64,000 nt of DNA from Escherichia coli (GCF_036507355.1 NZ_AP027877.1); one strand, 5' to 3'. Shown: positions 25,644-52,806, counted from the first letter of the stretch. Notes: generated by a model not told the origin, from the letters alone. Numbers and translations: made by a program.

Positions 25644-25730
25644 GCCCGGATGGTGGAATCGGTAGACACAAGGGATTTAAAATCCCTCGGCGTTCGCGCT
25701 GTGCGGGTTCAAGTCCCGCTCCGGGTACCA
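25644..25730 (+). tRNA. leuZ: tRNA-Leu (anticodon UAA), integration target of the island
   Basis: GCCCGGATGGTGGAATCGGTAGACACAAGGGATTTAAAATCCCTCGGCG...CCGGGTACCA, long variable arm. Confidence 0.95.
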
Positions 25731-25805
25731 TGGGAAACATCAGAATAATCAAAGCAATAAGCAGTGTCGTGAAACCACCTTCGGGTGGTTTTTTTGTGCA
25801 TGCAA
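25675..25805 (+). repeat. Left direct repeat (attL): 3' half of tRNA-Leu plus downstream terminator
   Basis: About 131 bp repeated with a few mismatches and a 2-bp indel at 51890-52022. Confidence 0.85.
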
Positions 25806-36706: not shown

Positions 36707-37837
36707 CTACAGTTTCATGATCTTGTTCGCTATTTTTTCGAAGTAAACCTCATTCTTAAGAAGAGTGATATTGTTAGTTTGAACACCCAGACCACTGGAG
36801 GTTGACTGGAAGTTGAGTGAACCACTTATCACGGTGGACTTTCCTGATAAAAATGAAATCAACTCCTTGGAAGATGGTGCCCACTCAGGGTTTAAGAGTA
36901 ATGCAATGTAGATATATGTCTTACGAAGCAATTGTTCGATATCTTTTTTATACCCCGTAGTGTTTTGCTTACCTTTAATGCAAATTGATTTGATTATGAA
37001 CTCATCAGGGCTGGTTAAAGGCGTTTTAAACTTATTCAGTGATCCATCGTTATGAATGACTTCATAAGGCAGCATAGATAAAATGATCAATGCAATCATT
37101 TTAGGATGATAAAGGTAGTTATCACGAATGATTTTTCCTGCCTTCATTGTATTGAGTGTTGTTTGAATAAATACAAAAAGATATTCAGAGCAAAAGTAAC
37201 AAAACACAAGCCAGGATAGGTCAATGGCTGGAATGTTAATATCCTTAGGTAGTTTGTTTAGCCAGTATTCAGACTTCAAAAAGGTCCTGATTTCAACAGT
37301 ATATTCATGCATTTTTGCGCTGAAATCAAGCATTGCTACTTGACCTGATTGTTCCGTAACTGTGTGGTCTATAAATGTTAGTGTATTGCACATTTTATCC
37401 AGCGTGTTTTGAAAACAAGAAAGGAGTTCGGCATTATTATTACCATTAACCGCAGATGAAAGTTCAGTTGCAATAAATGCATCCAGTAGCATACAGATTT
37501 TTTTCGGAATGACATTTTTACGGGATTGCTGTGAATAGAAATATACTGCCAGTAAATTAAAGGCAGTGCACTCCTTTTTTAACCATTGTTCGAGCACTGG
37601 GACGTGCTGAAAAAAATTGATATGCTTAGCAGTAGATGCTGATGGAGATAGTACATGAAGAATATCTACAGCAGGCTTCATTTGCAATATTTGATCGGAT
37701 TCGGTAGTCGTCATTAGTTCCAGTAATTGCTGTTCAGAAAATAGTTTAGACAGGTGATCAATGTCTTTTTGGTATTGGTTAAGTTTTTTTAAATTCCCCG
37801 GTACACGGGTTACATTGTTTTTCATTTTCTCGAACAT
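36707..37837 (-). CDS. Hypothetical protein (376 aa), AT-rich orphan
   Basis: Long ORF in visibly AT-rich DNA; no motif recognised. Confidence 0.55.
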   Translation of the reverse strand: MFEKMKNNVTRVPGNLKKLNQYQKDIDHLSKLFSEQQLLELMTTTESDQILQMKPAVDILHVLSPSASTAKHINFFQHVPVLEQWLKKECTAFNLLAVYFYSQQSRKNVIPKKICMLLDAFIATELSSAVNGNNNAELLSCFQNTLDKMCNTLTFIDHTVTEQSGQVAMLDFSAKMHEYTVEIRTFLKSEYWLNKLPKDINIPAIDLSWLVFCYFCSEYLFVFIQTTLNTMKAGKIIRDNYLYHPKMIALIILSMLPYEVIHNDGSLNKFKTPLTSPDEFIIKSICIKGKQNTTGYKKDIEQLLRKTYIYIALLLNPEWAPSSKELISFLSGKSTVISGSLNFQSTSSGLGVQTNNITLLKNEVYFEKIANKIMKL

Positions 37838-38239: not shown

Positions 38240-39475
38240 TTAAAAGGAAATAAACAGAGCCTTTCGCCGATGAATCAATGTGCTGATTTCCCTCAAATCA
38301 GCCTCAATACTACCAACATCACCAAAGACTTCACCTCTAATCTCACTTCGATTTTTCATGAAATTGGTGCTTAATAAGCTTTCTTTTTTTAATGCCATTA
38401 ATTTTGGTTTTATATCGTTATAGAAATGCTTACGGCTTACCCTGATGCTATGAATCGAGTAGTAAACTGTTTTATACATCAAAAATATAAGTAACTGGCC
38501 GAGAAGATATTCTTTTTCAATGTATTTATATTGAGAGGATTTTTCGCGTTTCGCCAGGTAGAAAACATGAGGTGCGATGATGGTGGGGATAAAATCCAGT
38601 GCTGGAGAGGTTTTGGTTTTTTCTGTTTCTCTTCCGGATTGAAGATGTTGAAGTACAGAGTATACAATGCTTAAAATTATGGCGTTACTTATATTATTAA
38701 TTGCAGTTGGGTAAATATGCAGATTGCTTATCAATTCTGAAAGGCAAAGTAAAACACCAGTGATGTTGGGTTTTCTGCCGGAGATTGTGGTGCTGTTGAA
38801 AATGTGACGATTCTTACGACTTATATTGACAAGTTTATGAGTGCAGAACTCTATATGTTCGACGATTTTATCTTGACTATTTTTAATGTATTTTGAAATG
38901 TTAGTGATCCGGCCATTCAACGTTAGTTCATCAAGCAATATATCATTTTTAATATTGCGAATTTCATCGCAATGTTCACATTGAGAAACTATCTCATGTA
39001 ATACATAACTCGAAGTATTGCGTGACGATGCTGATATGTAATCTAAAATGGAATGCTCGACTTTGATTTTTTGTTTGTATTTTTTAATGCACTGTTTGAT
39101 TGTTTTTTGTAGAGTATTTGAGATGTGTTTTTTATATTCTTTTAGAAAATCTTGCTCTAAAAAGAGTGAGGAGAAGATCAACTGCTGGCGAGATAATTTA
39201 ATCTCAGGCTTGATCAATTTAATCCGAAAAACTCTTCCCTCCAACTCATAGCTGAACATGGAAGATAAGTCATAGTGGGGTGATAAATGTTCGAGTAACG
39301 ACATTCGTGTATTCATTAGCCGCTTGAATTTATGGTCAGCATACATAAGTGTTTTTTTTATTTGCTCATCATAAAGTGGGCCGATAGCGCAGTTGGCAAT
39401 ACTCATTCTATCCGGAGACCTCCAGTCAGCAGGGGAATCACATTGACGGTCATCATTACTATCAAAGGGCATCAA
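38240..39475 (-). CDS. Hypothetical protein (411 aa), AT-rich orphan
   Basis: Long ORF in visibly AT-rich DNA; no motif recognised. Confidence 0.55.
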   Translation of the reverse strand: MMPFDSNDDRQCDSPADWRSPDRMSIANCAIGPLYDEQIKKTLMYADHKFKRLMNTRMSLLEHLSPHYDLSSMFSYELEGRVFRIKLIKPEIKLSRQQLIFSSLFLEQDFLKEYKKHISNTLQKTIKQCIKKYKQKIKVEHSILDYISASSRNTSSYVLHEIVSQCEHCDEIRNIKNDILLDELTLNGRITNISKYIKNSQDKIVEHIEFCTHKLVNISRKNRHIFNSTTISGRKPNITGVLLCLSELISNLHIYPTAINNISNAIILSIVYSVLQHLQSGRETEKTKTSPALDFIPTIIAPHVFYLAKREKSSQYKYIEKEYLLGQLLIFLMYKTVYYSIHSIRVSRKHFYNDIKPKLMALKKESLLSTNFMKNRSEIRGEVFGDVGSIEADLREISTLIHRRKALFISF

Positions 39476-39778
39476 CGTTGCCGATTATGGATGATGTCAG
39501 CTTCACACACCAGTACGGGTGATATATGGATCATCATTACCCCAACGGCAGTTTTACACCATGGCTAATATGGATGCTATCTTACTAAGATAATTGGTTT
39601 TTAGCGAGTGACGAGCCAGGTTGTGTCAGTCTGTCTCATGTCGATATTACGGGGATGATGCAAACCTGAATGCTGCGATATTGGCGTGTCAGGGGAGGCA
39701 TCTTACGGTATCATTTACCGCAATTTTTAAGATGCAAAGCCCTGCATCGCTAGCTTTTTCTTCAGACCAGGATGATTC

Positions 39779-41302
39779 ATGAACGACAAAATCAGTCAGG
39801 ACACGATCAACAAAGCCCTGTGGGCCGCGTGTGATACGTTCCGTGGCACCATCAGTGCTGATACCTATAAAGACTTTATCCTTACCATGCTGTTCCTCAA
39901 GTACATTTCAGATGTCTGGCAGGATCACTACGACGAATATAAAGTGCAATATGGCGATGCGCCGGAACTGATTGAAGCGATGATGGCGAACGAGCGCTTC
40001 GTGTTGCCGAAAAGCGCCAGTTTCTATGCGTTGTACGAGCGACGTCATGAGCCGGGCAACGGTGAGCGTATCGATCAGGCGCTGCATGCGATTGAAGAAG
40101 CCAACGGCACCAAACTGAAAGATGCCGGGAAAAGTGTCTTCCAGGATATTTCGTTTAACACTGACCGTCTGGGCGAAGAAAAACAGAAGAACACCATCCT
40201 GCGTCAGTTGCTGGAAGACTTTGCCGGTGAAGATCTTAACCTGAAGCCAAGCCGTGTCGGTACGCTGGACGTTATCGGTAATGCTTACGAATATCTGATC
40301 AAAAACTTTGCTGCCAGCGGTGGGCAGAAAGCCGGGGAATTCTATACCCCGCCGGAAGTTTCGGACCTGATTGCTGAACTGCTCGATCCGCAACCGGGTG
40401 ATACCATCTGCGATCCGGCCTGTGGTTCGGGTTCATTGTTGATGAAGTGTGGGCGTAAAATTGTCTCCGGGCATGATAGTCGTAACTATGCATTGTTCGG
40501 TCAGGAAGCGATCGGTTCTACGTGGTCGCTGGCGAAAATGAATATGTTCCTGCACGGGGAAGACAACCATAAAATCGAGTGGGGCGATACCATTCGTAAC
40601 CCGAAGCTGCTCGATAAAAATGGCGACCTGATGCTGTTTGATATCGTGACCGCTAACCCACCGTTCAGCCTCGATAAGTGGGGCCATGACGAGGCCGAGA
40701 ACGATAAGTTTGGCCGTTTTCGTCGCGGTGTACCGCCGAAGACTAAAGGAGATTACGCTTTTATCTCGCATATGATCGAAACCCTGAAACCGGGAACTGG
40801 CCGTATGGGCGTAGTTGTGCCACACGGTGTGCTTTTCCGTGGCTCCAGCGAAGGTAAAATTCGCCAGAAACTGATCGACGAAAATTTGCTGGATGCGGTA
40901 ATTGGTCTGCCGGAAAAACTGTTCTACGGTACGGGGATTCCGGCTGCGATTCTGATTTTTAAAAAGCAGAAAGTTGATGACAAGGTGCTGTTTATCGATG
41001 CCAGCCGTGAATTCAAGGCAGGTAAAAACCAGAACCAGCTTAGCGAAGAAAACATTAAGAAAATCGTCAAGACCTACCGTGATGGCGATAACGTCGAGAA
41101 ATACGCCTATCTTGCCAGCCTGAAGGAAATTCAGGACAACGACTATAATCTCAATATCCCGCGCTATGTCGATACCTTTGAAGAAGAGGATGAGATTGAC
41201 CTGCTGGCGGTGCGAGCAGAACGCGAGCAACTGAAGGCGGAATTGGCGAAGCTGGAAACGGAGATGGCTGGATATTTGAAGGAGTTGGGTTATGGCTCGT
41301 GA
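39779..41302 (+). CDS. hsdM: Type I restriction-modification methyltransferase subunit HsdM
   Basis: N6-adenine MTase motifs (DPACGSGS, TANPPFS), 507 aa. Confidence 0.92.
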   Translation: MNDKISQDTINKALWAACDTFRGTISADTYKDFILTMLFLKYISDVWQDHYDEYKVQYGDAPELIEAMMANERFVLPKSASFYALYERRHEPGNGERIDQALHAIEEANGTKLKDAGKSVFQDISFNTDRLGEEKQKNTILRQLLEDFAGEDLNLKPSRVGTLDVIGNAYEYLIKNFAASGGQKAGEFYTPPEVSDLIAELLDPQPGDTICDPACGSGSLLMKCGRKIVSGHDSRNYALFGQEAIGSTWSLAKMNMFLHGEDNHKIEWGDTIRNPKLLDKNGDLMLFDIVTANPPFSLDKWGHDEAENDKFGRFRRGVPPKTKGDYAFISHMIETLKPGTGRMGVVVPHGVLFRGSSEGKIRQKLIDENLLDAVIGLPEKLFYGTGIPAAILIFKKQKVDDKVLFIDASREFKAGKNQNQLSEENIKKIVKTYRDGDNVEKYAYLASLKEIQDNDYNLNIPRYVDTFEEEDEIDLLAVRAEREQLKAELAKLETEMAGYLKELGYGS

Positions 41303-42566
41303 TTCGCTTTACCCAGTGAGCGTTAAAGCTGGAAAACCGATCCTTGGAATGCTACCTACAGGATGGCAAAAGTTATCATTAGAAAAGTGCTTAAATATAG
41401 AGGCAAGAAAGGCATATATACAAGATAATCAAGAGTATGACTTAGTTACAGTAAAGCGCTCCAGAGGTGGCGTAATAAGACGTGAGCATCTTAAAGGAAA
41501 AGATATCTCCGTAAAAAGTCAATTCTATATTAAAGAAGGCGACTTTCTCATATCAAAACGACAAATTGTGCACGGTGCTTGCGGTCTTGTACCTAAAGAA
41601 CTTTCTGGCTCAATTGTATCGAATGAATATTGTGTGCTTACAGGGAAGTCCGGTTTTTATCTTCCTTATATGGAATTTCTATCGGAGTCTCTATATTTCC
41701 AGCAAACCTGCTTCCACTCTAGCATTGGTGTGCACATAGAGAAAATGATTTTTAAGTTAGATAGTTGGTTTAAGTGGCCATTTAATATCCCCCCACTGTC
41801 TGAACAAAAGAGAATCGTTAAAATCCTGTCAACCTGGGATAAGGCGATTTCGGTGACGGAAAAGCTTCTCACCAACAGTCAGCAGCAGAAAAAAGCCCTG
41901 ATGCAGCAATTGCTTACCGGGAAAAAACGCTTGCTGGATGAGAGGGGGGTGAGGTTTAGTGGGGAGTGGAAGAGAGTAAAACTGGGTGCGATAGCCGATA
42001 TGAACAGTGGAGGTACTCCGAAATCAACGGTTGAAGAGTATTATGGCGGGAATATCCCATGGGTATCTATTTCTGATATGACATCTAATGGAAAGTGGAT
42101 TGCTACAACTGAAAAATATCTGACTGAATTAGGATTGAACAGTTCATCCGCAAGAATATATCCAAAAAACTCGGTTCTTTATGCTATGTATGCTTCTATA
42201 GGTGAATGCAGCATTGCTGCTGTAAATTTAACATCTTCGCAGGCAATCTTGGGTATTAGACCAAAAGATTGTTTAAATTATGAGTTTTTATATTTCTATC
42301 TTACATCATTAAAAGAAAAAATAAAACTGCAAGGCCAGCAAGGTACACAGTCCAACCTAAACGCCGGAATGGTTAAAGAGTTTGAACTAGACTTACCCAG
42401 TATAAGAGAACAACAAAAAATCGCCGCCGTCCTGTCCGTCGCCGATGCCGAAATCTCCACGCTGGAGAAAAAACTCGCCTGCCTGAGAGATGAGAAAAAA
42501 GCCCTGATGCAACAGCTACTGACTGGCAAACGTCGTGTTAAGGTCGATGAGGCGGTTGCCGAATGA
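41292..42566 (+). CDS. hsdS: Type I R-M specificity subunit HsdS
   Basis: Two target-recognition domains separated by repeated conserved helices (KKALMQQLLTGKKRL / KKALMQQLLTGKRRV); overlaps hsdM. Confidence 0.9.
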   Translation: MARDSLYPVSVKAGKPILGMLPTGWQKLSLEKCLNIEARKAYIQDNQEYDLVTVKRSRGGVIRREHLKGKDISVKSQFYIKEGDFLISKRQIVHGACGLVPKELSGSIVSNEYCVLTGKSGFYLPYMEFLSESLYFQQTCFHSSIGVHIEKMIFKLDSWFKWPFNIPPLSEQKRIVKILSTWDKAISVTEKLLTNSQQQKKALMQQLLTGKKRLLDERGVRFSGEWKRVKLGAIADMNSGGTPKSTVEEYYGGNIPWVSISDMTSNGKWIATTEKYLTELGLNSSSARIYPKNSVLYAMYASIGECSIAAVNLTSSQAILGIRPKDCLNYEFLYFYLTSLKEKIKLQGQQGTQSNLNAGMVKEFELDLPSIREQQKIAAVLSVADAEISTLEKKLACLRDEKKALMQQLLTGKRRVKVDEAVAE

Positions 42567-43246
42567 AACTGACGAAAAGCGGTCCACTGACTGACCGGGA
42601 AATCGACTGGCTGGAAGAAATATTAATGAAGTATGGAATGGATGATTCTGTACTCTGTTTCTCTGAGCTGGATGGATTGCTGACGGCGATTTTATCAGGT
42701 CCAAATATGGTTTCACCCAATATCTGGCTGAGTGCTATTTGGGGAGGAGGCGATTATCATCCGAAATGGTCATCTGAGAGAGAGATGGAGCGTTTTGTCA
42801 GTCTGTGTTTTCAGCATATGAACGATATCGCTGGTTGCCTTTATGACGCCCCTGAACTGTTTGAGCCGATTTTCAATGAGCGTGAGGTAAAGGGGGAAAA
42901 ATATACCATTGTGGAAGAGTGGTGTTTTGGTTATATGAAAGGAAAGTCACTGGATGACTGGTCTGGTCTTCCCGGTGAGTTACGGCCTTCTCTGGAAGTG
43001 ATCGCTCTTCATGGCGTGGAGAAGAATTTTCCTGTACTTGAGAAAATGACCAGAGAGCAGTTTGAGAAAAGTATTTCCCTTATTAAGCCTGCTGCACTGG
43101 CACTTTATCAGTACTGGTTGTCAGTGAGAATGTCAGAGGCATCATCCCGGCCTGTTCCAGTGAAGGGGGCAGAAAACATGCCCGGGCGAAATGACCCGTG
43201 TCCGTGTGGCAGCGGTAAAAAATTTAAGAAGTGCTGTCTGCATTGA
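42563..43246 (+). CDS. YecA-like UPF0149 protein with C-terminal SEC-C metal-binding motif, nested in the hsd operon
   Basis: Aligns along its length with chromosomal YecA at 52141-52806; ends [20 protein letters not shown]; ATGA overlap with the hsdS stop. Confidence 0.8.
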   Translation: MKLTKSGPLTDREIDWLEEILMKYGMDDSVLCFSELDGLLTAILSGPNMVSPNIWLSAIWGGGDYHPKWSSEREMERFVSLCFQHMNDIAGCLYDAPELFEPIFNEREVKGEKYTIVEEWCFGYMKGKSLDDWSGLPGELRPSLEVIALHGVEKNFPVLEKMTREQFEKSISLIKPAALALYQYWLSVRMSEASSRPVPVKGAENMPGRNDPCPCGSGKKFKKCCLH

Positions 43247-43295
43247 TGAATCTTCATGTGACCAGTAGCGAGTAGCGCCAGAAAGAAAAGGATTA

Positions 43296-46200
43296 ATGAT
43301 GAACCAGACGTACACGCCTAAATTCCAGGAAGAATACAGCGCCAAAATTCCGGCACTGACGTTACTGACCAGCCTCGGCTGGACGTTTTTATCTCCGAAA
43401 CAGATTATGGATTACCGGGGCTATAAACAGGATGAGGTGGTGCTGCGTCCGGTTCTGCGTGAAGAGCTGTCGAAGCGTTCCTTTATGGCGGGTGGCAAAA
43501 CCTGCCAGTTATCGGAAAAAGCACTGGATAACCTGATATCACAGGTCTGTTCTCCGGCGCTGAATGAAGGGCTGCTCAAAGCCAATGAACGGATGTATAA
43601 CCATCTGCTCTACGGTATCGCCGTCACGGAGTTTGTCGATGGCAAGAAGGTGAACCCCACCATTGCGCTGATCGACTGGGAACATCCGGAAAGTAACCAG
43701 TTCCATTTTACCGAAGAATTTACGGTATTGCGGTCAGGCGGTGTCGAAACCCGCAGGCCGGATATTGTGTGTTTTGTGAATGGTATCCCGCTGGCCGTCA
43801 TTGAAGCGAAAAGCCCGGCGGGTCACGGCAAGAAAGGGCCAACCATTGACGAAGGGATATCCCAGAGTATCCGCAATCAGCTCAACGACGAAATCCCGCA
43901 GCTGTTTGCTTACAGCCAGATATTACTGTCGATTAACGGGCATGACGGGCGCTACGGTACCTGTCATACACCAATGAAATTCTGGGCGGCATGGCGCGAA
44001 GAAGATATTACTTACGCGCAGATGTATGCGCTGCGCAACCATAAGTTATCGACTGAACAAATTCATGCGTTGTTTGATGATCGTCCTTCAGTCGATCTCA
44101 AATGGTATCAACAGTTAATCGATGGGGGGGAACTGGCAGTCAGCGGGCAGGATAAGCTGCTCATCAGTCTGCTTTCACCGGAACGTCTGCTGGAGATGAC
44201 CCGCTTCTTCACCCTGTTTGATAAAAAAACCGGAAAAATTGTTGCCCGCTATCAGCAGGTGTTCGGTATTAAAAGACTGCTGGAACGCATCAGTACCCGC
44301 AGACCAGACGGGGGCAGGGAAGGTGGGGTGATCTGGCATACCACGGGGTCAGGTAAATCTTACACCATGGTATTCCTCAGCAAGGCGCTGATTCTTCATG
44401 ACAGCCTGAAGCAGTGTCGTATTGTGGTGGTGACGGACCGCGTGGACCTTGAAGGGCAGCTCAGCGGCACTTTTGTCTCTGGTGGCGAACTGGCAGGGAA
44501 GGATGATAAGGCCAAAGCGATGGCAACCTCAGGTCAGAAGCTGGCACAGCAGATTGGCTCTGGTAAAGAACGTATAATCTTTACCCTTATCCAGAAATTT
44601 AACTCAGCGACAAAATTGCCTGAATGCGTCAACACCAGCCCCGACATCATCGTTCTGATTGATGAAGGACACCGTAGCCAGGGTGGTGAGAACCATGTGC
44701 GAATGAAACTGGCACTGCCGAACGCCGCCTTTGTGGCATTTACTGGTACGCCATTGCTAAAAGAAGATAAGACCACCAATAAATTCGGGCCGATTGTCCA
44801 CGCTTATACCATGCAGCGAGCGGTAGAAGATAAAGCCGTTACACCTTTGCTGTATGAAGAACGTATTCCCGACCTTGAGGTTAACGATCGGGCAATAGAT
44901 GCCTGGTTTGATCGTATTACCGATGGGTTAAGCGAAGCGCAAAAAGCCGACCTTAAGCGTAAATATGCCCGTAAAGGTGAGGTTTATAGTGCAGATGATC
45001 GCATCCGTCTGATCGCACTCGATATCGCCACGCACTTCTCGAAGAATATTGATGAGGGGCTGAAAGGCCAGCTTGCCTGCGACAGCAAGATTTCCGCCAT
45101 CAAATATAAAAAGTATCTTGATGAAGCCGGGTTGTTTGAGTCAGCAGTAGTTATCAGCCCGCCGGATACCCGGGAAGGGAATACCGAAGTGGATGAAAGC
45201 AAACTGCCGGAAGTGACGAAATGGTGGAAGGATAATGTCGGCACGCAGGATGAGTCTGTGTATACCCGTAATATCATCAGTCGTTTCGATACCGATGAGA
45301 AGCTCAAATTGCTGATAGTCGTTGATAAACTGCTCACCGGGTTTGATGAGCCGAAGAATACCGTGCTGTATATCGACAAGCCGCTTAAGTCCCACAACCT
45401 TATCCAGGCGATTGCGCGGGTGAACCGACTGCATCCACTAAAAAAGTTCGGTCTGCTGATTGATTATCGCGGTATTCTGGCTGAGCTGGACACGACTATC
45501 GGCAAATATCAGGACCTCGCCTCCCGAACTCAGGGCGGATACGATATCAAAGATATTGACGGGCTGTACAGCGCCATGAGCTCTGAATACAAGCGCCTGC
45601 CGCATCTGTATAACCAGCTGTGGGCCATATTTGCCGGTGTTAAAAACAAAAATGATACTGAGCAGTTACGTGCGGTACTGGTGCCTAAAATGGAAGAACG
45701 TGACGGAGAGATGGTCGATATCCATCAGAAAACCCGTGATGATTTCTTCGAGGCGTTAACGGCCTTTGCCGGATGCCTGAAAGTGGCACTGCAGTCCGCT
45801 ACCTTCTTCACCGACAAGAGCTTTACGGAACAAGACCGAAATCTCTATAAAGAAACCGTAAAACAGATGTCCAGCCTGCGCCAGTGGGCGATGCAGGTAA
45901 GTGGAGAGCAGGTCAATTATGACGACTACGCTGAGCAGGTGAAAAAACTGCTGGATAAGCATGTCACCGGCGTTGAGGTTCGTGAACCGGATGGCGTGTA
46001 TGAAGTCGGTAAAATGGGCAAGAGCGAAAAGCCCGAAGAGTGGGACAACAATAAAACCCGCAATGAAACCGACATCATTAAAACCCGCGTGACGAAGATG
46101 ATTGAGCAGGAATTGCGTGATGACCCGTATGCTCAGGAGGCATTTTCAAAACTCCTGCGTATGGCTATCGAAGAGGCTGAAAAACTGTTTGACCATCCGC

Positions 46201-46583
46201 TGAAACAGTACCTTTTGTTCCGTGAATTTGAAGAACAGGTTGAAGCCCGTAAGCTCAGCGATATCCCGGATGCACTGGCGGTAAACAAGCATGCTCAGGC
46301 GTATTACGGTGTATTTAAAAAAGAGCTACCTGAGGTTTTTGCGGTAAACGACGTTCAGGTGCAGGATAAGTGGACCAAGCTGGCTTTTGAAGTGGACAAC
46401 ATTATCGTCAAAGCGGTGGCAGAAAACTCCCTGAACCCCCAGGACATTGAGAAAGTCGTTAAGACAAGTCTGCTACCACTGCTGTTTACGGCCTGCCGGG
46501 AAATTGGTGCCGGAATGAATCAGGTTAACCGTATTGTGGAAACCATCATCCAGATACTGCGCGTTGGTTTGATGAAATCATGA
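43296..46583 (+). CDS. hsdR: Type I restriction endonuclease subunit HsdR
   Basis: 1095 aa; Walker A TGSGKSYT and DEAH-like box DEGHRS. Confidence 0.92.
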   Translation: MMNQTYTPKFQEEYSAKIPALTLLTSLGWTFLSPKQIMDYRGYKQDEVVLRPVLREELSKRSFMAGGKTCQLSEKALDNLISQVCSPALNEGLLKANERMYNHLLYGIAVTEFVDGKKVNPTIALIDWEHPESNQFHFTEEFTVLRSGGVETRRPDIVCFVNGIPLAVIEAKSPAGHGKKGPTIDEGISQSIRNQLNDEIPQLFAYSQILLSINGHDGRYGTCHTPMKFWAAWREEDITYAQMYALRNHKLSTEQIHALFDDRPSVDLKWYQQLIDGGELAVSGQDKLLISLLSPERLLEMTRFFTLFDKKTGKIVARYQQVFGIKRLLERISTRRPDGGREGGVIWHTTGSGKSYTMVFLSKALILHDSLKQCRIVVVTDRVDLEGQLSGTFVSGGELAGKDDKAKAMATSGQKLAQQIGSGKERIIFTLIQKFNSATKLPECVNTSPDIIVLIDEGHRSQGGENHVRMKLALPNAAFVAFTGTPLLKEDKTTNKFGPIVHAYTMQRAVEDKAVTPLLYEERIPDLEVNDRAIDAWFDRITDGLSEAQKADLKRKYARKGEVYSADDRIRLIALDIATHFSKNIDEGLKGQLACDSKISAIKYKKYLDEAGLFESAVVISPPDTREGNTEVDESKLPEVTKWWKDNVGTQDESVYTRNIISRFDTDEKLKLLIVVDKLLTGFDEPKNTVLYIDKPLKSHNLIQAIARVNRLHPLKKFGLLIDYRGILAELDTTIGKYQDLASRTQGGYDIKDIDGLYSAMSSEYKRLPHLYNQLWAIFAGVKNKNDTEQLRAVLVPKMEERDGEMVDIHQKTRDDFFEALTAFAGCLKVALQSATFFTDKSFTEQDRNLYKETVKQMSSLRQWAMQVSGEQVNYDDYAEQVKKLLDKHVTGVEVREPDGVYEVGKMGKSEKPEEWDNNKTRNETDIIKTRVTKMIEQELRDDPYAQEAFSKLLRMAIEEAEKLFDHPLKQYLLFREFEEQVEARKLSDIPDALAVNKHAQAYYGVFKKELPEVFAVNDVQVQDKWTKLAFEVDNIIVKAVAENSLNPQDIEKVVKTSLLPLLFTACREIGAGMNQVNRIVETIIQILRVGLMKS

Positions 46584-47335
46584 GTGAAAAAGAATCGCCA
46601 TCAATGAAAGCGTTACGCATTGTCTATGGTGATGATGTCATCACCGTACAGTGTGTTCCGCGTCAGGTCGTAAAGGGCAGGGTGCTCATCAAGGTTTATC
46701 CGGACTGCCGGGTTGTGGCCTCTGTACCGCCTGAAACACCGGAGCACGAGGTATTGTCTGCGCTGAAAAAAAGAGGGCGCTGGATATACCAGCAACTGCG
46801 TGATTTCAGGGAGCAACAGACACACATTGTTCCGCGTCAGTATGTCAGCGGAGAAAGCCATTATTATCTCGGTAAGCAATATCAGTTGAAAGTGACAGAA
46901 GACGCTACTGTGCCGCAACGAGTGAAAATGTTGCGTGGGCGTCTGGAAGTGACTGTCAGACACAAATCGGCAGAAAAGATTAAAGCCTTGCTGGCTGAAT
47001 GGTATCGGGAACGTGCCAGAGATGTTTTTCAGCGCAGGCTTGATTTACTGATTCCGCAGACCCTTTGGGTCAGTGAGCGTCCTCCGATACGTCTGCGGGC
47101 GATGCAAACGCAATGGGGCAACTGTTCAGCAAAAGGCTGTCTGACCCTGAATCCATGGCTGGTTAAGGCATCCTCAGAATGTATCGATTATGTTTTGCTA
47201 CATGAGTTATGCCATGTGGCTGAGCACAACCACAGCGAGGAGTTTTACCGTCTGATGGGGCAGGTTATGCCTGGGTGGGAAAAGGTCAAGAAACGACTGG
47301 ATGGGATGGCTGGGATGTTGTTGGCTGATATGTAA
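46580..47335 (+). CDS. HExxH zinc metallopeptidase (M48/YgjP-like) after hsdR
   Basis: HELCH motif; ATGA overlap with the hsdR stop. Confidence 0.7.
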   Translation: MSEKESPSMKALRIVYGDDVITVQCVPRQVVKGRVLIKVYPDCRVVASVPPETPEHEVLSALKKRGRWIYQQLRDFREQQTHIVPRQYVSGESHYYLGKQYQLKVTEDATVPQRVKMLRGRLEVTVRHKSAEKIKALLAEWYRERARDVFQRRLDLLIPQTLWVSERPPIRLRAMQTQWGNCSAKGCLTLNPWLVKASSECIDYVLLHELCHVAEHNHSEEFYRLMGQVMPGWEKVKKRLDGMAGMLLADM

Positions 47336-47393
47336 CTTATCAATATGAGTTCTTAAGGGTTTGGTCAGTCTCGTTAATGTAGGGAGTATAATA

Positions 47394-49232
47394 ATGAGTA
47401 AGTTAGATAATAAAATTGAAGCACGCCATCGTAATTTGTTTGATGTTCTAAATGCGCAAAAATATACCGTTGATTACTTTCAGCGCGAGTATAGCTGGGG
47501 TGAGAAACATATTGAAGAGTTGGTTACAGACTTAACATCTGCGTTTCTCAATGAATACACCGTCGGTGATTCTCGGGAGCAGGGTGAAAACTACAATAAT
47601 TATTACTTAGGACCATTTGTTGTGAGTAGTAAAGATGGGAAACGGAGTATTATTGATGGTCAGCAACGACTGACTTCATTAACTTTATTTCTAATTTACC
47701 TCCATAACCTTCAGAAAGAACTTAAATATGAAGAGAAAATAGAATCAATGATTTTCTCCGAGTTACGTGGCAGCAAATCATTCAATATAGTAGTTGAAGA
47801 CAGAATACCTTGCATGGAAGCATTGTTTAATTTTGGTAGCTATAGTTTAGTTGATGGGGATGATGAGTCAACCCATAACATGGTGGAGAGATATCAGAAT
47901 ATCACAGATGCTTTTCCTGATGAATTAAAAGGTCAGGCTTTTCCTTTTTTTATCGACTGGCTTAAGTATAACGTTATTATGGTTGAGATAGTTGCCTATT
48001 CAGATGAAAACGCATATACCATCTTTGAGACTATGAATGACCGAGGATTAAATCTTACTCCGTCCGAAATGCTTAAAGGTTTTTTACTTTCACGCTTTCA
48101 TCAGGGAGATAAACGCCAAAAGGTAAATGAACTCTGGAAAAAAGCGATGATGGATTTAAAAAACTATGATAAAGATGAAGACCAACGTTTTTTCCAGTCA
48201 TGGTTGCGTGCTCAATATGCTGATACAATACGCCCGGGTAAAGCTGGTTCAAAAAATGAAGACTTTGAAAAAATAGGTACGCGTTTTCATAGCTGGGTTA
48301 GAGATAATCTTCAGGCGGTGGGATTGGACCCAGATAATGGTGAGACATTCGAACGATTTATACAAAAAAACTTTTTGTTTTATTTGAATGCCTATACACA
48401 AATACTGAATGCTGAGAGAGCATTAACGCACCAACTGGAATATGTATTTTATATCCACCATTGGGGTATTGCACCTACTTTAAGTTTCCCTTTGATGTTG
48501 GCTCCATTAAATGTAGGTGACAGTCCTGATGCTGTGATAGCCAAAATAAACCTGGTGGCGCGCTATATTGAAACATTTGTTGTTCGTCGTTCTGTTAATT
48601 TCCGAAAATTCTCTGCCAGTTCTATTCGTTACACAATGTACAGTCTTGTTAAAGAAATTCGTGGTAAAAGTATTGAAGAATTAAAAGATTTGTTATCTAA
48701 GAAGTTATCCGAAATGCCAGATACTTTTGCAGGAATGGAAGAGTTTCGTCTCCATGGTCAAAACTATCGTTTTGTGAAGTTTTTGCTTTCTCGTATAACT
48801 GCGTGGGTTGAGCAGCAAGCCGGAATGAGTACAACCTTCATTACATATTATCAGCCAGAACACGGTAAGCCATTTGAAGTCGAGCATATTTGGGCCGATA
48901 AATATGAACGTTACTCTGATGAGTTTGAACAAGAGCACGAATTTAACAATTACAGAAATCGCTTAGGTGATTTGGTTTTATTACCTAGAGGCTCAAACCA
49001 GTCATATGGTGATTTGTGTTACGATCAAAAGCAACCTCATTACATCAAAGAGAATCTCCTGGCTAAATCGTTATGCCCATTGGCATATATGAATAACCCT
49101 AATTTCAATCAGTTGAGAAATGTATTCGGATTGCCTTTCAAACCACATGATTCATTTAAAAAACAAGATGTCGATGAACGACAGTCTTTGTATAAAATAA
49201 TTTGTGAGAATATTTGGGACCATAATTTATAG
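47394..49232 (+). CDS. GmrSD-like DUF262/DUF1524 nuclease (type IV restriction-like)
   Basis: N-terminal DGQQR hallmark (IIDGQQRLTSL) and C-terminal His-Me-finger-like FEVEHIWAD; GGGAG RBS before ATG 47394. Confidence 0.7.
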   Translation: MSKLDNKIEARHRNLFDVLNAQKYTVDYFQREYSWGEKHIEELVTDLTSAFLNEYTVGDSREQGENYNNYYLGPFVVSSKDGKRSIIDGQQRLTSLTLFLIYLHNLQKELKYEEKIESMIFSELRGSKSFNIVVEDRIPCMEALFNFGSYSLVDGDDESTHNMVERYQNITDAFPDELKGQAFPFFIDWLKYNVIMVEIVAYSDENAYTIFETMNDRGLNLTPSEMLKGFLLSRFHQGDKRQKVNELWKKAMMDLKNYDKDEDQRFFQSWLRAQYADTIRPGKAGSKNEDFEKIGTRFHSWVRDNLQAVGLDPDNGETFERFIQKNFLFYLNAYTQILNAERALTHQLEYVFYIHHWGIAPTLSFPLMLAPLNVGDSPDAVIAKINLVARYIETFVVRRSVNFRKFSASSIRYTMYSLVKEIRGKSIEELKDLLSKKLSEMPDTFAGMEEFRLHGQNYRFVKFLLSRITAWVEQQAGMSTTFITYYQPEHGKPFEVEHIWADKYERYSDEFEQEHEFNNYRNRLGDLVLLPRGSNQSYGDLCYDQKQPHYIKENLLAKSLCPLAYMNNPNFNQLRNVFGLPFKPHDSFKKQDVDERQSLYKIICENIWDHNL

Positions 49233-49290: not shown

Positions 49291-50418
49291 TTGCGTTCTG
49301 AAACGTTTTTTGTCAAATTTATTGAACAACTGAAAGGTATTTCGGTTGAGGATGATGTTGAATTCAATTTTTTTGAATTGGGTGGTTCCGGATATCTCGA
49401 AAATCCAACTACGGATTTGATGGCTTTGTTTATGGGAGCCCAGAAAATGGTGCCGCCATGGTTGCTCAAAGCATTGCTATGTTGCCTGGATGATTCCCTC
49501 GATGTTGATGAAATTGATTTCACTTCTCTGGAGCTAATGAGAGAGGCCCGAACAGAAGATGGGAAATATATTGATATTCTTATCAGACATGATGAATTCA
49601 TTATAGGTATTGAGCATAAAGTTCTGGCTGATACATATAATCCTTTTCCCAGCTATGTAAGTCTCATTGATAGTTACGGCGGCAACAATCAAAAACTATT
49701 TCGCTGTATATTAAAGCCTGACGGTAACAGCGCTAAAGGCGTAGACGGTTGGCAACTGATCAATTATTCACTGCTGCTGGAAACCGCCATTCGACGTCTG
49801 GGGTTGGAGATGATGAATCAAGAGTTCAGCAAGTGGACTGTTTTTTATCAGGAGTTTTTAAGTCATCTTAAAAAATTGAGTGAGGTTAGTATGGATAAGG
49901 TATCTGATAAAAATGTGGAGTTTGTCACTGAAAATTTCTCAGCTTTGATAAAATCGGTTCAACTGCTGGAAATGTACCAAAATGCTATCACCGAGGAAGC
50001 TAAATCGGTTGTCTCAGAGGTATTGCCTGATATTCATATTGCAACAGGTATTAATAACTGGAAGGGTTACTATAAAGCAATTCATCTGATGCCGGGATGC
50101 TGGGGGCAAGGTAAAACAGGAATTACGTTAGTTTATCGCCCTTCAGAGGATGGACGAGATGAAGCTGAGTTCTACGTATATGGATGGATACATTCAGATG
50201 ATTACCCTGAAGTTAATGCACTAAAAGAAGAAATAAGAGTTGCTTTAAGTGCTGGAGATTTCATTCCAACAGCTAGCCCTGAGGACTATGAAGTATCAAT
50301 TACTGGGAAGGGGAAAGTGCTTGAACTGAGTTTTTGGGGGAATACGAGAAGCAAAAAAGATGCACTGGTTCTTCTTAAGGATATGACTAAGTGGATGGAC
50401 TCAAAAATAAGAACATAA
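49291..50418 (+). CDS. PD-(D/E)xK-type nuclease-fold protein (TTG start)
   Basis: Candidate catalytic core ...GKYIDILIRHDEFIIGIEHKV (D...ExK); AAGGAGG RBS. Confidence 0.55.
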   Translation: MRSETFFVKFIEQLKGISVEDDVEFNFFELGGSGYLENPTTDLMALFMGAQKMVPPWLLKALLCCLDDSLDVDEIDFTSLELMREARTEDGKYIDILIRHDEFIIGIEHKVLADTYNPFPSYVSLIDSYGGNNQKLFRCILKPDGNSAKGVDGWQLINYSLLLETAIRRLGLEMMNQEFSKWTVFYQEFLSHLKKLSEVSMDKVSDKNVEFVTENFSALIKSVQLLEMYQNAITEEAKSVVSEVLPDIHIATGINNWKGYYKAIHLMPGCWGQGKTGITLVYRPSEDGRDEAEFYVYGWIHSDDYPEVNALKEEIRVALSAGDFIPTASPEDYEVSITGKGKVLELSFWGNTRSKKDALVLLKDMTKWMDSKIRT

Positions 50419-50522: not shown

Positions 50523-51704
50523 ATGATTTATCAGTGTGATACTTGCAGTAGAACGACTTTTGAGGTTAATTGTCCCTGGTGTAGTGGAGTTTCGCCTGTA
50601 AAAACGTCTGCATGGGGTTCAGCATCATCGACCGCACAAGCAATAGGCATACAACGTATGACACCATTGAATCCATCGTTTTATCCCGAATTTCAGTATC
50701 GTTCAAAGGGTGTTCTAAAAGATCTATTTGGGAAAAAGAAAGAGCAAACTCAGCTTAATCAATTGCTTGAAAATGTTCTCAAAAAATACTCCAGTTTAAA
50801 AGATCCATATTTTACTAACTTCATTTACACTTCCAGATTCTCACATAATAATAAATCGGAAGCAGATTACTCAACAGATAATGGTACATACTCCGAATTA
50901 CAACTTTTCCGTGAGGTGTTGGTCAGAAAAGGGTTCAATGAGCTTGAGCAGTTACCTGAGCTATTAGATAAATTACTCCTTACCACGTCATTTAACGCTC
51001 TTTATTATGGTTTCGCTAAGGAAGTTAAACGGCATATTAAATCCACACTTACTGAATCCTTGAAGTCATGGATTGAGGAAGCGGGTACCACTTTTAGGGC
51101 AGATCTTTCATTGTTTCTATTCTATATATGGAGCAATAAAATAGAGTTCTCATCAGTAGAGTTCAATGAAAAAGCGGAGGCTACGCCTGGTGTTCCTTTA
51201 GTTTCATTTGATGAAGTTAAAAAATACTTAGCTGTGTGCGAACATATTTATTTTGATATTCTGGTTGATAGATTAGCTACACGGCTCGAACATTTTAACC
51301 CTAACAAATTCGTCACCATGTATTTAGTTGATGCAATGGACGGTTTCCAGTTTGAAGATTTCCTTGTGGAAGTATTCCAGACTATGGGCTATGACGTCAA
51401 AGAAACCAAGAGAACGCAAGATCAGGGGGCAGATCTCTTCGTCACTCGATTTGGTAAGGATATGGTTATTCAGGCGAAAAATTATTCTGGTTCTGTAGGT
51501 AACTCGGCGGTGCAGCAGGTGATCTCTGCTAAAACATTCTATGGTTGTGATGAGGCGATGGTTGTGACTAATTCCTACTTCACACGCTCTGCCAAAGAAT
51601 TAGCTGAATCAGCCTTGGTACGTTTGATCGACAGGGATGAACTGCAAAAGTATCTGGATGATTACAATCAGAAGATAATTGAAGATTTCCAGTCAAACTC
51701 GTAA
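50523..51704 (+). CDS. Zinc-ribbon protein with C-terminal Mrr-like restriction endonuclease domain
   Basis: N-terminal CDTCS...CPWC; C-terminal ...GADLFVTRFGKDMVIQAKNYSGSVG... resembles the Mrr catalytic domain. Confidence 0.6.
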   Translation: MIYQCDTCSRTTFEVNCPWCSGVSPVKTSAWGSASSTAQAIGIQRMTPLNPSFYPEFQYRSKGVLKDLFGKKKEQTQLNQLLENVLKKYSSLKDPYFTNFIYTSRFSHNNKSEADYSTDNGTYSELQLFREVLVRKGFNELEQLPELLDKLLLTTSFNALYYGFAKEVKRHIKSTLTESLKSWIEEAGTTFRADLSLFLFYIWSNKIEFSSVEFNEKAEATPGVPLVSFDEVKKYLAVCEHIYFDILVDRLATRLEHFNPNKFVTMYLVDAMDGFQFEDFLVEVFQTMGYDVKETKRTQDQGADLFVTRFGKDMVIQAKNYSGSVGNSAVQQVISAKTFYGCDEAMVVTNSYFTRSAKELAESALVRLIDRDELQKYLDDYNQKIIEDFQSNS

Positions 51705-51889: not shown

Positions 51890-52022
51890 ATTTAAAATCC
51901 CTCGGCGTTCGCGCTGTGCGGGTTCAAGTCCCGCTCCGGGTACCATGGGAAAGATAAGAATAAAATCAAAGCAATAAGCAGTGTCGTGAAACCACCTTCG
52001 GGTGGTTTTTTTGTGCCTGCAA
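51890..52022 (+). repeat. Right direct repeat (attR): copy of tRNA-Leu 3' half plus terminator
   Basis: Matches 25675-25805 with a few mismatches and a 2-bp indel; begins inside the anticodon arm, so no complete tRNA here. Confidence 0.85.
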
Positions 52023-52140: not shown

Positions 52141-52806
52141 ATGAAAACGGGACCGTTAAACGAAAGTGAGTTGGAATGGCTGGACGATATTCTGACCAAA
52201 TACAACACTGACCACGCCATCCTTGATGTGGCGGAGCTGGACGGTTTATTGACGGCGGTGTTGAGTTCTCCGCAAGAGATTGAACCGGCACAGTGGCTGG
52301 TTGCCGTGTGGGGTGGGGCTGACTATGTGCCGCGCTGGGCGTCAGAGAAAGAGATGACGCGCTTTATGAACCTGGCTTTTCAACATATGGCCGATACCGC
52401 AGAGCGTCTGAACGAATTCCCGGAGCAGTTTGAGCCGTTATTCGGCTTGCGAGAAGTTGATGGCAGCGAGCTGACGATTGTTGAGGAGTGGTGCTTTGGC
52501 TATATGCGGGGCGTGGCACTTTCTGACTGGTCAACATTGCCCGATTCGTTAAAACCAGCGCTGGAGGCGATAGCGCTGCACGGTACTGAGGAAAACTTCG
52601 AGCGGGTAGAGAAGATGTCGCCAGAAGCGTTTGAAGAGAGCGTAGATGCCATTCGACTGGCGGCGCTTGATCTACATGCGTACTGGATGGCGCATCCGCA
52701 GGAAAAAGCTGTTCAGCAACCGATCATAGCAGAAGAGAAACCGGGGCGTAACGATCCTTGCCCGTGCGGTAGTGGTAAGAAATTTAAGCAGTGCTGCCTG
52801 CATTAA
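52141..52806 (+). CDS. yecA: UPF0149 SEC-C-motif protein YecA
   Basis: 221 aa ending [20 protein letters not shown]; leuZ-adjacent position restored once the island is ignored. Confidence 0.9.

Follow-up and report, generated by a model that had tools for sequence, protein, structure and literature searches.

Why should a paralogue of a Sec-pathway chaperone be welded to hsdS, in hundreds of Escherichia coli chromosomes and on Klebsiella resistance plasmids alike, and why should a zincin gene shadow hsdR in the same type I restriction-modification (R-M) system? These questions are raised by positions 39,779 to 47,335 of a 64,000-nucleotide (nt) stretch of E. coli DNA (GCF_036507355.1, NZ_AP027877.1; we call this whole stretch the window), where hsdM, hsdS, a yecA-like gene, hsdR and a ygjP-like zincin gene follow one another. 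We interpret the locus, with a probability of roughly 0.75, as a type I R-M system that is undamaged and horizontally mobile, that forms a family of its own, that is carried by a 26-kb pipolin-type island at tRNA-Leu (leuZ) and that includes two accessory genes for which we propose roles below. The R-M system itself is ordinary, intact and very common, and the interest of the locus rests on its conserved accessory genes. It offers a test case both for the chaperone paralogue and for the role of DUF45/YgjP-type zincins at hsdR, a pairing without exception in the loci from Enterobacterales, Aeromonas, Legionella, Idiomarina and Alcanivorax.

An intact type I system arranged in two units

Calling open reading frames (ORFs) and reading their junctions returned exactly the five genes, the coordinates and the overlaps at three of four junctions, all on the plus strand, that a preliminary description of this DNA had given, and profile searches, with scores well clear of chance, together with motifs and PGAP annotation bore out its identification of every gene, including the yecA-like gene and the HExxH peptidase gene (Table 1). 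In E. coli HKUOPY1 and RM14721, PGAP arrives independently at this set of five genes. As read from the sequence, hsdM and hsdS overlap by 11 nt, and both the hsdS/yecA-like junction and the hsdR/ygjP-like junction are 4-nt overlaps of the form ATGA; between the yecA-like gene and hsdR lies a gap of 49 nt, or of 52 nt if PGAP's second ATG is taken as the hsdR start. While the gene set of the "five-gene operon" proposed in that description stands, its layout is better put as two units, hsdM-hsdS-yecA-like and hsdR-ygjP-like, each translationally coupled within itself and the two split by a spacer that takes 1-6.5 kb of defence genes in relatives.

Evaluating the three R-M subunits, we found HsdM to match TIGR00497 at 283 bits, to possess the gamma-class N6-adenine methyltransferase motifs (DPACGSG at residue 212, NPPF at 293) and to share 94-99% identity with relatives, which equal it in length. 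HsdS aligns over its full length with the PADLOC Specificity_I model (708 bits) and contains two copies of the Methylase_S domain (E = 2.8e-41), together with an internal repeat in which residues 161-214 and 363-416 are 46% identical and the sequence ALMQQLLTGK recurs at 202 and 404, once after each target recognition domain (TRD). HsdR likewise gave a full-length match, to PADLOC REase_I (1363 bits), as well as 461 bits against TIGR00348, and its nuclease motif (RPD...IEAK at 154-172, with PD...EAK at 155-171) and helicase motifs (TGSGKS at 350, DEGH at 456, TGTP at 483, QAIARVNR at 704) are intact. A check for inactivating lesions, of which any in hsdM or hsdR would have spoken against the preliminary description, disclosed none that are visible: gene lengths equal those of relatives at 94-99% identity, and the motifs checked are all in place. 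Because the subunits are intact, we infer from knowledge of the family that core restriction and modification are retained, such that an M2S complex would methylate adenine in a bipartite target and, joined by HsdR, would form an ATP-driven translocase-nuclease with incoming DNA that lacks the modification as its target. Across loci whose HsdM proteins are 94-99% identical, HsdS is just 31-55% identical, a divergence that we read as the usual diversification of TRDs.

To place the system among type I families, we compared it with types IA, IC and ID, the last through a proxy, EcoMII of E. coli EC958, whose R subunit is 92% identical to that of StySBLI (PMC4659465). By sequence, close similarity was found to the subunits of none of the three. 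Against the ID proxy, HsdM is 31% identical and HsdR 31% identical over 632 amino acids (aa); against EcoR124I (type IC), HsdM scores 237 bits and HsdR 114 bits, the latter in the helicase region only (residues 296-517); and against EcoKI (type IA), HsdM is 26% identical and HsdR gave no BLASTP match at E <= 1e-3. The three-subunit architecture is common to the window system and to classical IA, IC and ID systems, and the ID proxy also shares with it the hsdM-hsdS-hsdR order and the 11-nt hsdM/hsdS overlap, whereas the proxy locus possesses neither a yecA-like gene nor a zincin gene. The identities to the ID proxy and to IA lie far below within-family similarity, and the sequence comparisons put the window system outside IA, IC and ID, in a family of its own that is a little closer to IC and ID than it is to IA. 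The prototypes of types IE and IB differ from the window system in subunit size, with an hsdM of 2.6 kb in KpnBI (type IE) and an HsdR of ~810 aa in EcoAI (type IB). Plasmid-borne Klebsiella systems have been labelled "IC" in one paper (PMC11223367).

A zincin gene follows hsdR throughout the lineage

Relatives of HsdR (67-99% identity) taken from species-representative genomes gave 24 loci, 13 of them in Enterobacterales and 11 in other hosts, which include Legionella, Idiomarina, Alcanivorax, Ketobacter and Oceanisphaera. A ygjP-like gene, at 46-98% identity, follows hsdR in every locus with downstream DNA (23/23), either overlapping it or lying within ~15 nt of it. The same arrangement recurs in chromosomal islands of Yersinia and Klebsiella, and all Aeromonas loci retrieved by way of the YecA-like protein have it too, so that what the preliminary description had said of "some" type I systems holds for all of the loci retrieved by either route. 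Since the zincin gene lies 3' of hsdR in all loci examined, we take its product to be a lineage-wide partner of HsdR.

The hidden Markov model annotation of the peptidase that had been suggested as a check, once run, yielded PF01863 (YgjP-like, formerly DUF45) at 198 bits against a cutoff of 26, along with weak WLM and SprT-like matches. A profile match to PF01863, an HExxH motif (HELCH, residues 208-212) and a zincin fold are thus all present. The label "M48" given to the peptidase has to be dropped, as it is a loose PGAP name: neither the profile nor the architecture of peptidase family M48 (Ste24, HtpX, BepA) was found, no Pfam M48 model matched, and the fold is that of a minimal gluzincin. 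Relative to the minimal gluzincins (proabylysin, selecase) and to Wss1/SPRTN, the zincin adds an N-terminal domain of ~150 residues, and no modules for binding ubiquitin, SUMO or DNA are recognisable in it.

Purifying selection acts on both accessory genes. The ratio of nonsynonymous to synonymous divergence (dN/dS) is 0.04-0.15 for the ygjP-like gene and 0.08-0.13 for the yecA-like gene, the latter over divergences down to 74% identity, as compared with 0.02-0.07 for hsdM and hsdR. The yecA-like gene evolves faster, with a dN of 0.09-0.16 versus 0.01-0.03 for hsdM.

The YecA-like protein keeps the signature of a housekeeping chaperone

The YecA-like protein matches NF007704 at 357 bits (cutoff 149) and combines PF03695 (UPF0149) with PF02810 (SEC-C), its metal-binding motif [15 protein letters not shown] occupying residues 213-227. 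It also matches the PADLOC candidate model PDC-S12 at 329.7 bits, with residues 5-227 aligned to model positions 2-218 of 218. Over its full length it is 57% identical to the core YecA encoded ~9 kb away in the same window. E. coli YecA, also known as AscA, is reported to be a holdase chaperone that prevents aggregation and whose metal-binding domain binds SecB and ribosomes (bioRxiv 10.1101/2020.07.21.215244); it has the same two domains and the identical metal-binding motif. What differs is the setting, in that E. coli YecA sits at the core leuZ-yecA-tyrP locus whereas the YecA-like protein is encoded inside a mobile R-M system by a gene fused to the hsdS stop.

Presence of the gene is variable. 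It occurs in 7/13 Enterobacterales loci (one copy being frameshifted) and in 0/11 of the other HsdR-retrieved loci, and, as it is missing from many copies, it is therefore not needed for core R-M function. Where present, in Enterobacterales and Aeromonas, it is always fused to the hsdS stop; the Aeromonas genes form a second embedded set, 46% identical to the window's protein and also starting on the hsdS stop. Among homologues, the embedded clade of the window spans 73-99% identity and is followed by a sharp break, with housekeeping YecA proteins at <= 60%. Embedded and housekeeping YecA proteins have 51 conserved positions in common, including the whole metal site [14 protein letters not shown], and no residue was found that is common to both embedded clades and absent from housekeeping YecA.

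In an unrooted, distance-based tree (neighbour joining, NJ), the embedded proteins of Enterobacterales cluster with the housekeeping YecA of that order, and apart from the embedded Aeromonas proteins, in all of 200 bootstraps (100%), a result that argues against a single ancient embedded lineage comprising the Aeromonas and enterobacterial genes. The grouping therefore implies at least one switch between housekeeping and embedded states, for which a tree of this unrooted kind makes either independent recruitment or domestication possible.

Two further occurrences of YecA-family genes were evaluated and set aside. Carriage by phages, as matches to PHROG 24700 might indicate, was rejected given that each of the six matches is a core yecA gene situated at the extremity of a prophage-derived record; these six "Escherichia phage" records (ON470596.1, NC_049344.1 and others; positions ~4-690) end inside core yecA, and phrog_24700 probably matches YecA because of prophage-boundary artefacts at the leuZ site. 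Distant YecA genes (26-29% identity) on Xanthomonas and Pseudomonas plasmids were rejected as apparent Tn3 passengers without a link to R-M: in L008 (6974-7687) and L009 (7001-7699), from Pseudomonas and Xanthomonas plasmids, the YecA-family gene lies directly 3' of a Tn3-family transposase gene. Such a distant YecA-family gene is carried by 113 Xanthomonas plasmids.

The spacer before hsdR as a defence-gene slot

Extra genes that co-occur with the yecA-like gene are always found 3' of it and 5' of hsdR, and they encode a 620-aa protein with a weak cold-shock domain (CSD), a Schlafen-type ATPase, MoxR-VWA or RhuM. In loci without the yecA-like gene, the slot contains McrBC together with a cyclase of the cyclic oligonucleotide-based antiphage signalling system (CBASS) and a patatin effector; SIR2-HerA; a PtuA ATPase (Septu type); an OloA homologue (Olokun); or nothing. 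By comparison with these relatives, the 49-nt spacer of the window is the empty state of a defence-gene insertion hotspot, a pattern that agrees with the "guilt-by-embedding" concept behind PADLOC's PDC-S12 model.

Several of the slot genes recur. The 620-aa protein is encoded between the yecA-like gene and hsdR in six loci (L010, 8629-10491; L015; L016, 6069-7931; L017; L026; L029), and L021 and L006 have an equally long interval there; the protein shows a weak N-terminal CSD match (24.5 bits) and no PADLOC or PHROG match, and it is common on Klebsiella plasmids, where it is annotated "cold shock domain-containing protein". A MoxR-type AAA+ ATPase (bpMoxR) and a VWA protein adjoin the YecA-like protein in L040 (2743-5726), L045 (3263-6252) and L048 (3734-6798), in two arrangements, one inside Aeromonas hsd loci and the other beside GmrSD genes without visible hsd, which hints at a recurrent association between YecA-like and MoxR-VWA. 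A RhuM-family gene (L038, 4676-5722; L039, 4676-5722; L047, 6753-7769) occupies the hsdS-hsdR slot of Yersinia and Klebsiella chromosomal islands and follows the yecA-like gene in Aeromonas crassostreae.

Carriage on a pipolin-type island and on plasmids

The module resides on a 26.2-kb island bounded by a direct repeat of ~125 nt that starts inside tRNA-Leu. The features of a pipolin site were found, namely attachment (att) repeats at a tRNA-Leu between pgsA and yecA together with tyrosine recombinases, and E. coli pipolins are known to have the same insertion site between pgsA/tRNA-Leu and yecA and a like gene content (PMC11551731, PMC7385651). Among their cargoes, "Type 1 RM, PDC-S12" is frequent and recently exchanged (PMC11551731). 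Besides the R-M module, the island holds an IS1 fragment, genes for two tyrosine recombinases and a DUF2787 protein, and a gene for a polymerase-like protein of 887 aa. The last is our candidate for the primer-independent family-B polymerase (piPolB) gene, the hallmark of pipolins: its PHROG DNA-polymerase matches are weak (7.8e-07 and 4.9e-05), PGAP calls the RM14721 homologue "DNA polymerase", and searches of Pfam and of PDB sequences returned zero matches.

The module is present in roughly 10% of complete E. coli genomes. Matches to the whole module were found in 660 of 5,426 complete E. coli genomes and in 389 plasmids, mostly conjugative, of which 362 are from Klebsiella. The segment comprising the hsdR 3' end and the ygjP-like gene occurs in 560 E. 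coli genomes and the yecA-like gene in 419, or about three quarters. The whole module of RM14721 is 98.7% identical to that of the window, and in HKUOPY1 the yecA-like segment and the hsdR 3' end/ygjP-like segment, queried separately, are both 100% identical to it. The HKUOPY1 hsdS (L051, 3035-4267) is 42 nt (14 codons) shorter than the window gene, and the specificity gene has apparently been exchanged or resized there inside an otherwise identical module. In Citrobacter koseri NCTC10786 (L037, 6743-14378), hsdS-hsdR-ygjP-gmrSD-mrr are split into many short ORFs at high nucleotide similarity, as either a frameshifted pseudogene array or an indel-rich assembly would produce.

Weighing the roles of the accessory genes

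Literature searches on YecA with type I restriction, on DUF45/COG1451 with restriction and on YgjP with hsdR found nothing relevant. Given its obligatory coupling to hsdR and its resemblance to DNA-protein-crosslink proteases, we favour a role for the zincin on HsdR itself, in which it would hold down or clear away HsdR protein stuck on DNA or synthesised ahead of host modification. It would thereby give a mobile system its own, self-encoded restriction alleviation, the job that ClpXP does for EcoKI. The YecA-like protein, in turn, would keep its holdase biochemistry and serve as a dedicated chaperone or adaptor for a subunit made beside it rather than as an independent killer protein; we favour this because its chaperone signature is unchanged, it has no effector domain and its fusion to hsdS is fixed. 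Combining the two is speculative and in our view unlikely to be right: YecA/AscA-type chaperones that dock on ribosomes and SecB, drawn into the hsdM-hsdS unit of one lineage by at least one switch, and a Wss1/SPRTN-like, HsdR-coupled zincin would together form a built-in chaperone-protease circuit that would set the time at which HsdR may assemble, or would take it off DNA. Such a circuit, if real, could allow safe establishment in new hosts, or the sensing of phage takeover in the manner of the chaperones of toxin-antitoxin-chaperone (TAC) systems. If either accessory gene controls HsdR, this would account for the ability of type I systems on plasmids and islands to move into hosts with unmodified DNA and leave them alive, and would bear on the spread of Klebsiella plasmids.

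Several points weigh against these proposals. The yecA-like gene is missing from about 25% of E. coli copies and from most relatives outside the Enterobacterales, and the copy in L015 is frameshifted. Some YecA-like genes lie in defence islands without visible hsd, and one lies beside a degraded hsdS, which fits an autonomous role better. The N-terminal ~150 residues of the zincin have no solved analogue; E. coli's own ygjP is, to our knowledge, not next to an R-M system; and the proposed tie between zincin and HsdR is one of neighbouring genes rather than a physical link. Restriction and modification activity at this locus is likewise a prediction from sequence, and separate transcription of the two units would be a model drawn from gene spacing. 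The scan for promoters and terminators was uninformative, with 22 candidate promoters in the region versus 24 expected in shuffles, and a weak candidate sigma-70 promoter at 39686..39714 (+), ~65 nt 5' of hsdM (GTGTCA-17-TATCAT, 9/12 matches), is suggestive by its position alone.

The zincin may instead not act on HsdR at all. It could be a regulatory protease that senses damage or infection, as IrrE and CapP do, or a protease that destroys the anti-restriction proteins of phages, or else a metal hydrolase without proteolytic activity. We consider this doubtful while giving it some weight, as the zincin fold resembles IrrE, CapP and ArdC too, if at lower scores, the N-terminal half could be a sensor domain, and E. 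coli YgjP presumably carries a UniProt-type annotation as a nucleotide pyrophosphatase, which we count in favour of such a function. The strict translational coupling to hsdR, maintained across 46-98% identity, argues rather for a stoichiometric or functional tie to HsdR, and action on HsdR remains the role we prefer. For the YecA-like protein, an autonomous or guardian function like that of PrrC, held silent by the R-M system and released as abortive infection when a phage disables restriction, is what PADLOC's entry of PDC-S12 as a phage defence candidate implies, and it draws on several observations. The gene occupies the prrC position of EcoprrI, hsdM-hsdS-X-hsdR (PMC3874165, PMC12707154); its product matches PDC-S12 over the full length, a model that came from guilt-by-embedding (bioRxiv 10.1101/2024.01.29.577857); an intact Providencia yecA-like gene persists beside an hsdS degraded by an insertion sequence; a YecA-like relative is encoded alongside GmrSD and MoxR-VWA genes at a place where hsd genes are not seen; and there is precedent in TAC systems, whose SecB-like chaperones sense phage (bioRxiv 10.1101/2024.02.24.581848). 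We nevertheless judge a guardian unlikely. Of what defines a PrrC/RloC-type guardian, the position between hsdS and hsdR matches, but the ATPase and anticodon-nuclease domains were not found; profile searches recovered only UPF0149 and the metal-binding tail, with no nuclease, NTPase or other effector domain, and the conserved residues are those of the housekeeping chaperone. The gene is moreover welded to the hsdS stop, with genuine alternative cargo inserted 3' of it, and PDC-S12 is a candidate only, the systems validated in the PADLOC-candidate preprint being seven others.

It is also conceivable that the yecA-like gene is a mere passenger, chromosomal yecA captured by imprecise excision at leuZ, that plays no part in restriction. 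The distance from the right att repeat to core yecA, outside the island, is 125 nt, and the position of core yecA beside the integration site suggests such capture as the origin of the embedded copy. Deposited prophage records from the leuZ site end inside core yecA, a sign that this stretch is readily carried along on excision or given wrong boundaries; the embedded clade of Enterobacterales falls with the housekeeping YecA of the same order, separate from the one in Aeromonas (100% NJ bootstrap); and the gene is dispensable in many copies. Capture accounts for origin, however, and not for retention. With a dN/dS of 0.08-0.13 down to 74% identity, a 4-nt hsdS overlap conserved in two bacterial orders, and carriage by hundreds of Klebsiella plasmids, remote from any leuZ site, we regard a functionless passenger as very improbable, and we retain a chaperone or adaptor serving an adjacent subunit as the preferred reading.

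Island neighbours

The preliminary description had called the module the main cargo of the element, which is fair and yet incomplete. The R-M genes account for 7.6 kb of the 26.2-kb island, and GmrSD-type, PDDEXK_4 (PDC-S26) and Mrr-type genes follow them on the same strand (Table 1), so that the R-M system is the largest of several defence cargoes. The likely true start of the GmrSD-type gene is the ATG at 47394, which is also the PGAP start. Directly 5' of hsdM, two minus-strand ORFs of 376 aa (36707-37837) and 411 aa (38240-39475) gave no Pfam, NCBIfam or PADLOC match; both are conserved in E. coli RM14721, where they are annotated as hypothetical proteins. An Rfam scan of the island returned three tRNAs and nothing else.

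Table 1. Positions of the R-M module, the island boundaries and neighbouring genes in the 64,000-nt window.
Feature	Position	Strand	Basis or remark
hsdM, N6-adenine DNA methyltransferase subunit, 507 aa	39779..41302	+	TIGR00497, PF02384, PF12161, motifs
hsdS, specificity subunit, 424 aa, two TRDs	41292..42566	+	PF01420 x2, PADLOC Specificity_I
yecA-like, 227 aa	42563..43246	+	NF007704, PF03695 (UPF0149), PF02810 (SecA-type metal-binding), PADLOC PDC-S12
Spacer, 49 nt, with hsdR Shine-Dalgarno AAGGA	43247..43295	+	Read from sequence
hsdR, restriction/translocase subunit, 1095 aa	43296..46583	+	TIGR00348; HSDR_N, SWI2_SNF2, T1R_D3-like domains
ygjP-like zincin, 251 aa	46580..47335	+	PF01863, HELCH
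tRNA-Leu(taa) gene	25644-25730		
Left att repeat: 3' part of tRNA-Leu(taa) and downstream sequence	25675..25799	+	Recurs at 51890-52016
Candidate piPolB, 887 aa	31811..34474	-	Weak PHROG DNA-polymerase matches; RM14721 homologue annotated "DNA polymerase"
GmrSD-type (DUF262/DUF1524) gene	47361..49232	+	PF03235, PF07510; PADLOC HEC-06-like
PD-(D/E)XK family gene, PADLOC candidate PDC-S26	49291..50418	+	PF14281; PDC-S26 171 bits
Mrr-type restriction endonuclease gene	50523..51704	+	PF04471 E = 7.2e-30
Right att repeat	51890..52016	+	Direct repeat of 25675-25799
Core chromosomal yecA, 221 aa, outside island	52141..52806	+	Annotated yecA beside tyrP in RM14721 and HKUOPY1

Comparison with known systems

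The module as such is already known, being annotated by PGAP, catalogued by PADLOC and published as pipolin cargo, and it also occurs on plasmids. Its catalogued form (M, S and R subunits with a YecA family protein and an M48 family metallopeptidase in PGAP; RM type I with PDC-S12 in PADLOC) has the same genes in the same order and shows no structural difference from the window copy, which is a short variant with the slot before hsdR empty.

Among characterised systems, the type IC system EcoprrI has the same order, hsdM-hsdS-embedded gene-hsdR, and its prrC is co-expressed with the methylase genes (PMC3874165, PMC12707154). The embedded products differ, since PrrC is an ATPase-anticodon nuclease whereas the yecA-like gene of the window encodes a chaperone-type protein without an effector domain. 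We know of no peptidase gene trailing hsdR in EcoprrI.

For the zincin, the closest parallel in logic is the ClpXP-dependent restriction alleviation of EcoKI, in which, as Makovets, Doronina and Murray reportedly found in 1999, proteolysis of HsdR protects a host with unmodified DNA. On our hypothesis, the window system would itself encode the protease.

For the YecA-like protein, TAC systems offer the nearest precedent, in that a Sec-pathway chaperone paralogue forms the third gene of a defence-type module, as we propose here (PMC5105189, PMC6377645, bioRxiv 10.1101/2024.02.24.581848). No chaperone-addiction element has come to light in the window system, and TAC systems also differ from it in using a SecB-like chaperone within another host module, the YecA-like protein belonging to a different family.

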